A stretch of DNA of 48,615 nucleotides from an uncultured Pseudomonadota bacterium (GTDB lineage Bacteria; Babelota; Babeliae; Babelales; Vermiphilaceae), in the NCBI GenBank assembly GCA_964533545.1, contig CAZHJT010000005.1, forward strand, positions 1 to 48,615, given 5' to 3'. The position numbers are program-made. Shown one piece after another: positions 18,001-24,000 of the stretch (positions within the stretch are counted from its first letter, which is position 1; each line of letters opens with the position of its first letter).

Positions 18001-21000
18001 CTAAAAACCTTTGTATTGTATGCTGGCTCTTCTTTACTAACGCACAGGTCAAATCTTGCTCTTTTGTTACTTCTCTCGCATGCGCTACTTATTCCAGGTA
18101 ACTCTAAACCAGTGAGCAGCTTTTCGCTCTTAAGAAAAGCTCTTCTTGAGTCTGATGCTGAGACCTGTGGGAAACCTGTAGAGAAAACAAGTAAGGCTAT
18201 AAGTTTTGTAGACATAAAACATTCCCTGAAAATAGTACCGAAAATACCACAAAAACTATTACTAATGGTGCCAACACGCTAAAAAAAATCAATAGGTCGA
18301 TATAGAATGAACAACGTCGCCATTATTTCTGTATGAAGATTTTATGCCGCACGTTACCTTAAAAAAGCTCTTTGACTAGATCATCGATCTGTTTGACGCT
18401 TACTTCATCTTGCATAGCACGATAAAACTGTTCATCATACTCACGCGTTTGGACCACGACAGGCATAGCAAGTGCATGACCCAACAACAATGCCTGCTTT
18501 TTGCTATCCAGCGAAGCGAGCACAGCACGCAAGTTGCTCGCATTACTAACGCCCGTCAGCACCGCCTGAATATCCTTTTCATCACTGAGCTGAGCAATAA
18601 TTTTGGTGCCAATTTGAGACAAAATCTCTTGATCAATGTCGGACGGTCGTTGGTCAACTACTAAAAGCGAAACATAATATTTACGCATCTCTCGCGCAAT
18701 GGTGCCAAAAATAGTTTGACGTGCCGTTTGTGTATTTAAAAATTTATGCGCCTCTTCAATGGTGATCATCAGTTTCTGTGGCTCATCTTGTGAGCGTTGC
18801 GATCCTAAAAAGAGCTCAGTCTTTTTAACGTAGTGGCTATGAATACGGCGTGTGATGATGTTTGCAATTAACAGATAGATAAATGAGGAAGTGTGATTAC
18901 CAAATTCGATAACAATGCTGATCCCACGATCAAGATATTCGATCATCTGATCAAAAATAGAGGCATGCTTGTATGCTGCACCCGCCGGCCGTGGTGTAAA
19001 AAAAGGTAAATGTTCTATGCGTTTTAACTTACGATATAACGCAGCCACTGATTCAGGATGCGCCCCCAACTCTTGCGCAAACTCTTTAAGGTTGTCACCT
19101 TGTGTCAGCAGCTGCTGCAACCAATCGGCTTTATAACGCGCTACCAATAAGTAGGCGGCCTCAACGGCAGTTGCATGTAAATTCAACTCCTGCTGTAACG
19201 AAATGATATCTTCGACCTGTATTTCTTGATAGGTCAAGTTGATCACCACATCAGGGCTTCCGCCACGTCGGCGTGTTGACTCTGGATCGAGAGAAAAGAT
19301 GACCACACGGTCGGGAAAGAGTGTCTTTAACCCTTTAACAAATGAATGTGATTTTCCCTCTTTGCGTGCTTGCAGCCCATATTCACTATGCATGTCAAAA
19401 ATAAGTGTTACGGCCTTTTTATGCTTGACCAAGCCTGCAAGAACCAACCGCGTTAAAAAGGTTTTACCCGTGCCGGTCTTGCCAAAAATGCCATTACTAC
19501 GCTCGCCAAGGCGATCAAGATCTATGCATACAGGAACCTGCATATCAAGCGGACAACCTATGTTAAAATAACGCTTGCTCGGCTCATCTTCACTGCCAAA
19601 AATAAGAGCCACTTCTTCACGGCTCGCTTCGTATACAGGAGCAAAGTGTGGTGGCACTGTTTTGACAGGTGATGGCACATTGTTAGCGCCAAGCATGAGC
19701 ATGGGTTTCAACTGCGCTGTCGCATACATAGCCCGCTGCTTCAAGATGGTCGTTAACAAAACCTCTTTTTCGTCAGGCGGGAACAAAAGGATATCAGGGT
19801 TGGTGACCTCAAGTTTTAAATCGGTAATGAGCGAAAAAAAGGTATACTGCTCGCCCACAATGGAGACGAATTTACCGGTTTTGATCGACTCAAGTGATGC
19901 GCAAGGATCTACGCGCATCATAAAACCTTCAGTCAACGATCCGGACACGATACTCCCTAGAGGGACTCTCATGTTGTTTCACCTAACAATGCCAAGACTG
20001 CTGTGCGAGATACTTCAACAACCCCTTGTAGCACGGCAATAGACTCTTGTCTGCCATCGGCAAAGCCGAAGGTCAATGGCTCTTTTGGCGCCAACACAAA
20101 GACCGTTGGCACATGTTCAGGCTGTATAACAAAGCTGCCACGATCGGTTATAACTTCAAGCCAAGAGATTTCATGTTCCAGTATCTGATCCGGTTTTATA
20201 ATCGTAAGCTTCATCATGCAGCGGCCCGCAAGAGCTTAGCTTTTTCGCGCGCTTCATCGAGCGTACCAACCAGATAGAAAGCCTGTTCTGGCAGATCATC
20301 CACTTCACCGCTCAACAGCACTTCAAAATCGGCAATTGCCTGTTCTCGTGGTACATAGCGACCTGCTAACCCTGTACTGAATTCAGCAGTAAAGAGCGGT
20401 TGCGTTAAGAATTTTTGTACCTTTTTTGCACGACCAACGATAATTTTGTCTTCTTGTGAAAGCTCATCCATGCCCAAGATAGCGATAATATCGCGCAATT
20501 CTTTGTAGCGTTGCAAAATTGTTTGAATTTGACGAGCGACCCTGTAATGGCGTTTGCCTACAATAGCGGGATCAAGCCCTCGGGAATTCGATTGCAATGG
20601 ATCGATTGCTGGGTATAGACCAAGCTCTACCAATTTACGTGACAATACGGTGCTCGCATCCAAATGCATAAAGGTTATTGCTGGTGCTGGATCGGTAATA
20701 TCATCAGATGGCACGTAGACAGCTTGAATGGACGTAATGGACCCATTAAGCGTATTAGTTATACGCTCTTGAAAAGCTCCCATTTCTGAAGCGAGTGTTG
20801 GTTGGTAGCCTACAGCAGATGGCAAGTGACCAAGCAGAGTGGAAATTTCAGATCCCGCTTGCACAAAACGGAAGATGTTATCGATAAATAAGAGCACGTC
20901 CTTTTTTTGGACATCACGGAAATATTCGGCCATGGTAAGACCTGTCATGCCGATACGCAAACGCGCACCAGGAACATCACCCATCTGCCCAAACACTAAT

Positions 21001-24000
21001 GCTGTTTTATCAAGAACTCCTGAGCGTTTCATTTCAAGCCACAGTTCATTCCCTTCACGAGTACGCTCTCCGATACCCGTAAAGACCGAAACACCACTAT
21101 GTTCTATCGCTATATTTCTAATAAGCTCTTGCACTAAAATCGTTTTACCAACGCCTGCACCGCCAAAGAGACCTATTTTCGATCCCTTAATGTAAGGACA
21201 CATGATATCGATAACTTTAATACCGGTCTCTTGTGTTTCGTGGCTTATTTTCTGTTCGATAAGTTGTGGTGCTTTACGGTAGATCGGCCATTTTTGCTCA
21301 GCATGCAATGGCGCTTTGTCATCGATCGTCTCGCCAAGCACGTTAAAAATTCTTCCCAATACGTGCGAGCCAACCGGTACTTCAATAGGGTGCCCAGTGT
21401 CAACAACCTCCAGATCACGCCGCACACTAAAAATCTCTTCTATCGCAATACAGCGAACTACGCCATCACCTAACTGCTGAGCAACCTCTATGGCAACCCG
21501 ACGTTCAGGTGTATTATTTTCTGCAGGGAAAAGAATATACAGCTTATTTAAAATAGCTGGTATTGCATGGCGAGGAAATTCTACATCAACAACGGTGCCG
21601 CTCACCCGTATTATGCGACCATGAGAAGATGAAGCCTCTACTTGATTTTTATGTACTGTTGCGTCGAGCATGCCATTGCCTTCATTAAGAAAATAAAGCT
21701 CTTTTGAAATCCCTTAGAAAAGGGCACTTAATTCGAATGTGCTGCTACTTTACAAACAAGCTACTGAAGCTGTATTTTTTTGTAAAGCGCTGATACACAA
21801 TTACTCTAAAAGGCTAAATCGCCTGAACCAAGTTAATGTAACTACAATAGAGCTTTTAATCTCACTATACAAATGGCAGGTCGTCCCTGCGCAGGCAGGG
21901 ATCCATGCTGTGAAATTATTCCTTTATTACCCAACCTGCTTTTTTAAAATCTGTATCATATACGATTCCCCCACAAGCTGGGTCAAGAACTTTTGCAATT
22001 GCGTGCCAAAATATTTCATCTGATGTAAGCGCCTGGTTACGTCTTTATCAGTGCTAAGGGTGTTGTACTTCTCTCTAAACGTTTCAAATTCTTGTAGATC
22101 TGAATAATCCAAAGCACTTATATCTTGCGCTGGAATCTGCTCAAAAACCGCTTCTCTGGCTTTTCCTTTGACCACGTCTGTTCCGCTTGCATAGTTTCTC
22201 TGTATGATACTCATAACGCTCGCAGCCAACTTTTGTTTCTGCTGTTCTTGTGCCGCAGCTCTTTCTCCTTTTGATAGCTCTTCTCGAATGCCTGCGGCTT
22301 CTACACCTTTGGCTTCTAGTGGTTCAGCTGCCAAGGGCTTGCGCACTAATCGCTCGCTTGCAACATGCTCTGCTTCAAGAGCATCAGCTTCACGCTTGCG
22401 CACTTCCTCTCGAGCCGGTTCTGCTTTTGGCTCGACTAATGATTCTTCTTTTAGAAGCACTTCTTCTTTTACAGCCTCTTCAGCGATAGGTTCCAATGGC
22501 GTTGGCGTGCTCTTTGTGACTGGAACTGGCAGCTCGCTCGTTGGTTTGATCACCGCTGTTGGCGTCCCTACCACTTTTGCTTGCTCATCTTTTGACGGTC
22601 GCAATTTTTTAGGCTCTTGTACCGGTTTTGAGAGTTCTTCCACCTCTTTTTGTGGCGCGAGCACCGTCGTTGTTTTTGGGCTGGGACCACTAGGCAAAAT
22701 CATTCTGTAAGGCTTTGACGCTGGCAGATCAGGGAAGGAAATTCCTCCTCTTTCCCCAAACGAAAGCGGTTCTTCAATCAAAGGCTCCTGTTGTGTGTAT
22801 TTGGTTTTTTCAAAAAGATCTCTTTGATGCTCTTCCATTTCTTTTTGCAACTTAAGCTCCTGCTCTCTACGCTTTTTAAGTAGCTCGCTGCCCTCTTTTT
22901 CTAACGCTTCGATCTCTTTCTTCTTTTTTTCTGTAGCAATACGCTCTTGCTCCTCACGAGCCTTTTGTGCTTCAAGCTCTGCCGCACGGCGCTCTTCTTC
23001 TGCCTGCGCTGCGGCAGCCTCTTGTTGCGCTATGCGCTCTTGCTCTTCAGCTTGTTTGCGCAATAACTCCTGTGCTTCTTCTTCTTTCTTGCGCGCATCA
23101 ACTAACGACAATTGCAGGGCTGCATCTTGTGCTGCTCGCGCTTCTGCTTCAGCTGCTTGCTCATTCGCTCGTTGTTCACGTTCTTCTTTCTCAAATTCTA
23201 GTCGCAAGCGCTCCTCTTCTTGGCGTTGTTTCTCTTTTTGCTCCGCTTCTTGGCGAGCCCGCTCTTGTTGCTCTTGCGCCTGGCGCTCTTCTGCTGCCAG
23301 TTGCTCTGCGCGCGCACGTGCCTGCTGTTCAGCCACACGCTTTGCTTCTGCTTCATCAGCTAATCGCTTGATCTCAGCTTCTTGAGCAATCTTGGCCTGT
23401 TGTTCTGCTGCAGCCTCTCTTTGCTGTATTTGTTTAATGCGCTCGGCTACTTCTTGATCATCCTTAAGCTCTTTCGCCTGCTGAGCTTCTAATTCTTTTT
23501 TCCTCGCTTCTTCCAACCGCGCTAACTCTTCTTGACGGGCTAACCGTTCAGCTTCAGCAACTTGAGCTGCCTTGAGCCTTTGCTCTGCTGCCTTCGTTTC
23601 CGCTAGCTGCTTTGCCGCTGCTTCATCGGCTAATCGCTTGGCTTCGGCCGCCTCCCTTTGCTGCATTTCTTTAATTTTCTCGGCTAATTCTAGATCAGCC
23701 TTAAGCTCTCTCTCTTGCTGATCTTTTAATTCTTTTCTACGTACTTCTTCTAATCGCGCTAACTCTTCTTGACGGACTAACTGTTCGGCTTCAGCCCTTT
23801 TTGTGATTTCGGCCTGTCGCTCAACAGCCATACGCTCTTGCTCTTGTTGGACTTCTAATTCTTTTCTTCTTTCTGTTTCTACTCGCTCTTGTTCTGCCGC
23901 TTCTTGTCTTGCAGCTGCTGGTTGTTTCTTCTTAGGTGTTTTACTTTTAGATTGTATAGCTTTTTCTCCTGAACCTGCTGGCTCTTGAACTCCTGCTACC

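Follow-up and report, generated by a model that had tools for sequence, protein, structure and literature searches.

A HerA ATPase gene behind atpD-atpC in a Dependentiae genome and its probable partners NurA and a stand-alone HAS-barrel protein

Described HerA-NurA systems and the Dependentiae module

To date, studies cover only two bacterial NurA-HerA pairs (PMC13748450), and both come with backup resection. As described in PMC9960219, which calls the role of bacterial NurA-HerA controversial, Deinococcus carries NurA-HerA and RecJ and lacks RecBCD and AddAB, deleting nurA or herA in D. radiodurans and Thermus changed the phenotype modestly or made cells more resistant, and efficient resection is attributed to RecJ-RecQ. 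A role for HerA as an FtsK analogue has already been proposed for archaea, according to PMC2958812, which cites Iyer 2004. The initial annotation of the DNA analysed here considered a bacterial phylum relying on HerA-NurA, with the motor co-expressed with F1, to be undescribed; going by these two accounts, Deinococcus is a precedent and the FtsK-analogue idea is in print. A literature search of papers available without subscription found none on HerA in Dependentiae. What is new here is probably the likely third subunit and the RecQ-less setting, and Iyer et al. 2004 may already mention a stand-alone barrel gene.

The D. radiodurans system (PDB 7F6D, 7WRW, 7WRX), as PMC9960219 presents it, likewise combines a HAS-barrel HerA with NurA, RecJ and a stand-alone RecD2 without RecBCD/AddAB, but its HerA is only 14% identical to the protein studied here on structural alignment, ranked 44th in Foldseek and gave no phmmer match at E ≤ 0.001. 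In addition, RecQ and RecO were present in the Deinococcus controls and were not found in Dependentiae, where the genes are unlinked and joined by a third, stand-alone barrel gene. The archaeal HerA-NurA-Mre11-Rad50 machine (Sulfolobus, 4D2I; Thermococcus kodakarensis, 9X1L and 9X1M) has the same fold and motifs, and homologues of Mre11 and Rad50 (SbcD and SbcC) are present here. A related operon with all four genes was found in one relative (L187) and not in Dependentiae, which differ further in a HerA 16–19% identical to the archaeal structures, in the extra barrel protein and in one genome (G064) that lacks the trio. The closest relatives form an uncharacterised Chloroflexota, cyanobacterial and Latescibacterota HerA clade with a nurA-barrel-herA operon, whereas in Dependentiae the genes are dispersed and AddAB, RecQ, SMC and ParB were not found. 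Synechocystis Sll0284, which may be comparable, is called largely undescribed (PMC8136920). In the Thermotoga maritima control, NurA and SbcD were found and PDDEXK_1, RecO, RecR, the RecQ zinc domain, ParB and FtsK were not; unlike Dependentiae, it has an SMC hinge.

The atpD-atpC-herA locus and the proteins of the module

The window, by which we mean the whole 48,615-nucleotide stretch analysed, carries on its minus strand atpD (20214-21671; F1 beta subunit, 485 aa), atpC (19969-20217; F1 epsilon subunit, 82 aa) and herA (18359-19972; 537 aa), with ATGA stop-start overlaps read directly from the sequence at both junctions (20214-20217 and 19969-19972). This agrees with the unit drawn in the initial annotation, as does the recurrence of the order in G040, where herA has the same overlap (-4) and HerA is 63.9% identical (64% had been given). 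The single-copy atpD is of the canonical F type (TIGR01039, 735.7 bits against a cut-off of 462.85, one copy in the genome). The atpC product matches PF02823 (E 3.2e-10, residues 2-74) and consists of the beta-sandwich alone, lacking the C-terminal helical domain, and the atpC frames span 76–93 aa in every relative examined. The remaining ATP-synthase subunits lie at three other loci (E/F'/F/H/A at C6:3074-6358, gamma at C6:43405 and a at C32:8930), so that the "ATP synthase operon" at this locus amounts to atpD-atpC alone. N-ATPase operons have the order atpDCQRBEFAG; an operon of this kind was rejected here, as the beta subunit scores as canonical atpD and below cut-off with the N-ATPase beta model TIGR03305 (568.8 against 752), and the other subunits are elsewhere. 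RNA contigs from three studies, none of which spanned the atpC-herA junction by 31 bases, held scattered pieces of atpD, atpC and herA with a low word share, and a promoter and terminator scan was at chance level (7 vs 7.8; 5 vs 4.0).

HerA comprises an N-terminal HAS barrel, a helical insert and a RecA-like ATPase. Pfam assigned DUF87 (E 3.5e-29) and, weakly, the HAS-barrel (E 0.0055), a domain (PF09378) that many close HerA homologues carry. The Walker A residues G167, G169 and K170, the Walker B residues E406 and E407 and the arginine finger R427 are invariant in 100 sequences, and the structure model (pLDDT 91) matches HerA structures along its whole length. By analogy with these homologues, the protein would be a hexamer that translocates dsDNA.

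As the initial annotation had listed, the genome (G000) also holds NurA, a stand-alone HAS-barrel protein and SbcCD. In nurA (C55:1232-2356), the motif residues D81, D171 and H332 are invariant among 44 sequences and agree with the three published motifs (PMC13748450). The stand-alone barrel gene (C22:4570-5172) was recovered at Pfam E 6.8e-5, matching the value of 7e-5 and the single copy noted earlier. Its protein model (pLDDT 90) is nearest in fold to the N-terminal barrels of HerA (Z 13.9, rmsd 1.8 over 101 residues), in a search that barely covered the C-terminal helical part, and a barrel-profile search of PDB sequences gave no informative match. A predicted complex of the barrel protein, NurA and two HerA barrels scored 0.42, close to the 0.40 obtained with NurA replaced. 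The sbcC gene (C4:10542-13265; 907 aa) was identified by its length, an SMC_N match and a BLAST comparison with the SbcC of L187, which Pfam types as such, and sbcD lies at C33:7913-9160; SbcD was found in 28 of 28 genomes, and 5 of 5 have an SMC_N-matching frame some 910 aa long. In this genome herA, nurA, sbcD and sbcC occupy four separate contigs with unrelated neighbours, and they are apart in closed genomes too.

Distribution, bacterial relatives and repair background

Distribution was followed in 81 genomes with a completeness of 90% or more, a phylum draw that yielded one order only, with 14 families. HerA was found as a single gene in 80 of them, NurA in 79 and the stand-alone barrel protein in 80, and all three are thus single-copy core genes in Dependentiae. 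HerA is 56–76% identical among these genomes of about 1 Mb. NurA alone was missing from G052, and in G064, a 93%-complete draft, none of the three was found, while RecJ, RecA, RecR, SbcD and UvrD are retained. In G067, a member of the same genus, HerA is the most divergent (56%, on the longest branch) and the NurA and barrel matches are the weakest. The joint absence of three unlinked genes, seen in this one draft genome, suggests a three-part machine, and the loss of HerA together with NurA points to a nuclease-coupled job.

Outside Dependentiae, a nurA-barrel-herA operon is present at 12 of 62 loci, and in L187 the order is lexA-radA-recA...nurA-barrel-herA-sbcD-sbcC. The closest HerA relatives are bacterial, sharing 39–48% identity with a bacterial query and as much as about 50% with the HerA of this genome, and the nearest Atlas clusters are mostly Chloroflexota. 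The archaeal HerA models scored far under their cut-offs (NF040937, 93.8 against 800 bits; NF040819, 76.5 against 970). In an IQ-TREE tree of 56 of 140 sequences, from which the short L174 was left out and which held no archaeal sequences, the sister group of Dependentiae HerA is Latescibacterota (SH-aLRT 86), and the tree mostly tracks families. Judged by these comparisons, the HerA-NurA-barrel module is bacterial, not archaeal, and the label "archaeal-type" given to it initially is not supported. In all six Latescibacterota-group genomes the trio stands beside AddAB; the module is therefore not simply an AddAB substitute.

RecBCD and AddAB were not found in Dependentiae: PDDEXK_1 matches occurred in 14 of 81 genomes, all weak, one of them in a 1259-aa frame of G071 and none in G000, and real AddA and AddB queries recovered UvrD alone in G000 and G040, with one UvrD-size helicase per genome in the five genomes inspected. 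RecQ and RecO were each not found in 28 genomes, nor were the SMC hinge and ParB, including in G000. The absences of RecBCD/AddAB, SMC and ParB claimed at the outset were thus borne out, as were two caveats attached to them, that RecJ (present in 81 of 81 genomes) could resect and that FtsK is present here (4 of 5 genomes tested, G000 among them). RecD2, UvrD, RecF, RecR and RecA are also present. One RecO candidate (C6:22053-22646) aligned in register with the profile over 111 columns (nulls, 12–23 columns) at E 0.055 and a probability of 1%; it had no Pfam, NCBIfam or PDB match and none to E. coli RecO, and was unranked by a five-sequence RecO HMM.

Role of the module and position of herA

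Our preferred explanation, which we consider probable, is that herA encodes a ring ATPase likely to feed broken dsDNA to NurA, with the barrel protein as a probable third part, and that its position behind atpD-atpC likely goes back to a rearrangement that was inherited, the genes having no function in common. Its basis is the folds and catalytic motifs of all three proteins, the core status, the joint absence, the intact nurA-barrel-herA operon in other bacterial phyla and the clade-limited, interruptible link. The complexes of archaea and Deinococcus would suggest, by analogy, a pathway in which SbcCD cleans the DNA end, NurA forms a dimer through which the duplex is moved by a HerA hexamer, RecJ lengthens the 5′ resection and RecF and RecR help load RecA. 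With RecBCD/AddAB and RecQ not found and the trio core, a resection role is likely, and HerA is a leading candidate motor for it, alongside RecD2 and UvrD. Sole dependence on the trio is unlikely, because RecJ is universal, the G064 draft shows none of the three genes and six relatives keep the trio beside AddAB; to judge from G064, HerA is probably not indispensable. The initial proposal that the phylum resects through a HerA-NurA-Mre11/Rad50-type machine gains support from the core trio and from AddAB, RecBCD and RecQ not being found, while the archaeal attribution is not supported and RecJ stands against it. More tentatively, an uncharacterised three-subunit assembly of HerA hexamer, NurA dimer and HAS-barrel adaptor might be the principal break resector of a whole parasitic order without AddAB/RecBCD, RecQ, SMC and ParB, and HerA might also clear chromosomes at division in FtsK-less members such as G078.

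A somewhat doubtful alternative is that RecJ with RecD2 or UvrD resects mainly and that the trio is an accessory end processor, as in Deinococcus and Thermus, acting where forks stall or reverse or degrading DNA that enters the cell. The universal RecJ, the presence of RecF, RecR and RecA, the lack of the trio in G064 and its retention beside AddAB elsewhere fit such a role, as do deletion phenotypes described as mild or mixed in PMC9960219 and the transformation-defective, UV-sensitive Thermus HepA mutants reported in PMC5448004; the missing RecQ and undetected RecO, the conservation of three genes in such small genomes and the L187 operon lying with recA and sbcCD argue against it. It is improbable that HerA doubles as a chromosome pump when multi-genome replication bodies divide, covering for absent SMC and ParB. 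The closed genome G078 has HerA and no FtsK match, G064 shows pieces of FtsK but no HerA, and the FtsK family is also silent in the NurA-bearing Synechococcus and Thermotoga controls, but the complementary pattern is one genome each way, Pfam places no FtsK-type domain on HerA and PMC9960219 describes D. radiodurans HerA as forming a closed, stable ring whose loading is believed to take place at the ends of DNA. With FtsK in most genomes tested, including this one, and G064 lacking HerA, the segregation role first suggested for HerA is not upheld. An anti-phage or phosphorothioate-type system is barely plausible: although Sir2-HerA, DUF4297-HerA and TdpAB-type complexes are among the top sequence and fold matches, scores are far under cut-offs (94 against 800 bits), no conserved effector gene adjoins herA, and a single-copy gene whose tree largely follows families has no patchy spread.

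The place of herA behind atpD-atpC is likely ordinary gene order. The atpC-herA link occurs in 60 of the 67 HerA-bearing genomes of nine families, which form one HerA clade (SH-aLRT 100), and in none of the 13 from five other families, whose herA mostly lies behind acpS; two genomes have HerA split over contig ends, and the second fragments (G014 and G069) were left out of this count. That the junction is selected, with HerA co-regulated with F1 or binding it through a shared barrel fold, is very unlikely. Its ATGA overlap in this genome, the order kept since the clade ancestor and the resemblance of the HAS barrel to F1 N-terminal barrels (Z ~8) would suit such selection; against it, beta shares no transcript with alpha, gamma or a, atpC or atpD is near herA at 0 of 62 loci outside Dependentiae, and an ATGA overlap like this one joins herA to acpS in G076. 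The atpC-herA overlap is present at 12 of 61 herA loci examined, and inserts of up to 4 kb separate genes of the link in 12 genomes; in G013 and G063 they include genes on the opposite strand. For comparison, G000 and G040 both keep 132 of 162 tight gene pairs (81%), or 101 of 130 once ribosomal clusters are set aside. Confined to a single clade, frequently interrupted and kept no better than other neighbours, the link does not amount to the welding of herA to F1 that had been claimed. We consider the ATP-synthase link unimportant and the repair module of modest interest; a distinct HerA clade with a third gene, core in ~1-Mb genomes in which AddAB and RecQ were not found, makes a clean case for whether bacterial HerA-NurA resects breaks.

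Returning to the inherited rearrangement, an ancestral repair operon may have broken up in Dependentiae, each gene settling downstream of a housekeeping gene (atpC or acpS for herA, sufU or secA for nurA, rnhB for the barrel gene and glmU for sbcD) whose promoter it would borrow. A relic nurA-atp-herA cluster in family f10, where nurA is near atpD, was considered and rejected, as nurA there follows secA, itself divergent from atpD. The sufU-nurA pairing was seen at 22 of 30 loci.

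HerA, NurA and a stand-alone HAS-barrel protein

In a set of 81 genomes of at least 90% completeness, drawn from a single order of Dependentiae, HerA was present in 80/81, NurA in 79/81 and a HAS-barrel protein encoded separately from herA in 80/81. The Walker A, Walker B and arginine-finger residues of HerA were invariant in 100 sequences, NurA kept its three motifs, as given in PMC13748450, and the barrel protein is modeled as a HerA-type barrel with a helical tail. The three genes are unlinked in Dependentiae. In genome G064 all three were missing, also by family search, while RecJ, RecA, RecR, SbcD and UvrD were retained, and in its congener G067 HerA had diverged furthest and the NurA and barrel matches were the weakest of all; G052 lacked NurA alone. 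Outside Dependentiae, nurA-barrel-herA were consecutive in 12 of 62 loci and barrel-herA in two more, many of the others being truncated upstream or carrying herA alone. The triple absence in G064, the divergence in G067 and these operons, the main support, suggest a three-gene repair module that was scattered in Dependentiae. In the Entotheonella locus L187 (the same locus as L298:3888-15664), lexA, radA and recA are followed by nurA, barrel, herA, sbcD and sbcC, confirming an operon of that type, at odds with the synteny statement in PMC13748450; the genome has no long AddA/AddB frame.

Close kin of HerA were bacterial (Latescibacterota, Tectomicrobia, Chloroflexota, cyanobacteria, Armatimonadota and Rhodothermota), and a 56-sequence tree placed a monophyletic Dependentiae HerA (SH-aLRT 100) as sister to the Latescibacterota group (86). 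The label "archaeal-type" used in the initial annotation was thus not borne out; neither this tree nor a 140-sequence FastTree included archaeal sequences. Structures of TdpA and of archaeal, anti-phage and Deinococcus HerA fitted the HerA model (pLDDT 91) about equally well, with 13-19% identity, and none of the curated HerA families matched at its own cut-off; that this HerA serves in defence is extremely improbable. A HerA annotated in a freshwater mussel assembly (P0245, 46% identical) is probably from a bacterial contig. Near the barrel gene of the source genome, C22:5951-6628 (locus L002) encodes a LexA/cI-like regulator with HTH and S24-peptidase domains, 83-90% identical in relatives belonging to f1 and f2, two of the families. 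Its gene runs divergently from rnhB-barrel in 11/12 loci and, where rnhB is absent (L129, L302), still faces the barrel gene head-to-head; it is a possible damage-response regulator.

End processing and RecA loading

By analogy with homologues, from which every step is borrowed, HerA, NurA and the barrel protein would probably form a DNA-end-processing machine, with SbcCD and RecJ as co-workers. RecJ was found in 81/81 genomes, which favors an accessory role of the trio beside it, a reading we regard as rather unlikely. SbcD was present in 28/28, RecA and RecR in 5/5, and RecD2 and a RecF-size SMC_N protein behind dnaN were also found. RecQ (0/5 above cut-off, 0/28) and RecO (0/5, 0/28) were not detected. 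A conserved, divergent 197-aa hypothetical protein (C6:22053-22646 of the source genome; L303:5054-5647), RecO-like by eye at its N-terminus, aligned in register with the RecO profile below significance (E 0.055) and is a candidate for the missing RecO.

As stated initially, no RecBCD/AddAB was found: PDDEXK_1 matched in 14/81 genomes, never strongly (best 48 bits), in frames of at most 455 aa except one of 790 and one of 1259 aa, and real AddA/AddB queries matched UvrD alone in the source genome and G040. Five genomes had one UvrD-size helicase each. The 1259-aa frame, ended by the match at C5:9259-9684 of G071, could be AddA-like or another helicase-nuclease. L186 and L187 carry the trio without paired long AddA/AddB frames; six Latescibacterota-group genomes hold both, which counts against a simple substitution for AddAB.

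PMC9960219 describes Deinococcus-Thermus as having NurA-HerA, lacking RecBCD/AddAB and depending on RecJ-RecQ for resection, and reports modest or inverse effects of nurA/herA deletions; for Thermus, both the title of PMC9751324 and our PDDEXK_1-search control contradict that lack. Thermus HepA influences UV survival and DNA transfer (PMC5448004), recBCD is missing from many cyanobacteria (PMC5101192), presynaptic proteins are missing from many RecA-positive genomes (PMC1193525), and Synechocystis Sll0284 is called largely undescribed (PMC8136920). The portions available of PMC6561590 and PMC4776705 catalog Dependentiae repair genes, HerA and NurA not among them, and a literature search for Dependentiae together with HerA found no paper.

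Chromosome segregation

A reading of HerA as a segregation pump recalls the FtsK-analogue idea for archaea in PMC2958812. In its favor, the reported absence of SMC and ParB held (SMC hinge and ParB 0/28 each), but FtsK was present in 4/5 genomes, and we consider this role quite unlikely. The closed, single-contig G078 has HerA and ParA with no FtsK, SMC hinge or ParB match, whereas G064 has FtsK pieces without the trio; this complementarity, one genome each, is a lead, not support. ParA/Soj matches without ParB were strong in 3/5 genomes (G001, G078 and G040; L109, L110, L111), with none in the source genome or G041.

The atpD-atpC-herA arrangement

On the minus strand, atpD (20214-21671; Pfam F1 beta), atpC (19969-20217; 82 aa, epsilon N-domain only) and herA (18359-19972; DUF87 plus a weak HAS barrel) follow one another with ATGA overlaps at both junctions, in the order first described. 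atpD is a single-copy, canonical beta gene, and homologues carrying names belong to Candidatus Dependentiae/Babeliales. Because the other ATP synthase genes lie at three further loci (gamma and a identified through Pfam on G040 orthologues), herA stands behind a two-gene fragment and not, as the initial annotation had it, an ATP synthase operon.

In 48/80 genomes a same-strand atpD lay within 620 bases upstream of herA, and in another 12 it lay within 4 kb; the two were far apart on one contig in 5 and on different contigs in 15, some perhaps through assembly breaks. All 60 linked genomes come from nine families that group together as one clade (SH-aLRT 100), and the link is absent in 13/13 genomes of the other five families, so that it likely arose once. 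In these unlinked families acpS precedes herA in 7/9 loci, likewise with an ATGA overlap in G076, and ATP/ADP translocase (TLC) genes follow atpDC in 5/8 informative loci (L089, L093, L095, L097, L102); the translocase is a more coherent functional neighbor of atpDC than herA. Neither atpC nor atpD occurred in the 62 non-Dependentiae herA loci. herA overlapped atpC by ATGA in 12/61 loci, making co-transcription plausible, and opposite-strand genes intervene between atpDC and herA in G013 and G063. In a control comparison, the source genome had 162 tight same-strand orthologue pairs, of which 132 were still neighbors in G040 (101/130 without ribosomal clusters); nurA likewise sits behind sufU in 22/30 loci, the barrel gene behind rnhB and sbcD behind glmU. 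A functional tie between HerA and F1 is very improbable.

The epsilon C-terminal helical domain inhibits ATP hydrolysis, and its absence in all relatives examined (frames of 76-93 aa; 19969-20217 here) therefore fits an enzyme working as an ATP-driven proton pump. The Dependentiae ATP synthase is interpreted as a proton pump in PMC6561590 and PMC4776705. Upstream of atpD, a charged, low-complexity 1040-aa protein (21927-25049, minus strand) had no Pfam match. A short GC-rich hairpin at 21876-21925, where several RNA contigs align briefly and then run off, is likely a dispersed palindromic repeat of a kind known from Rickettsia-like parasites.
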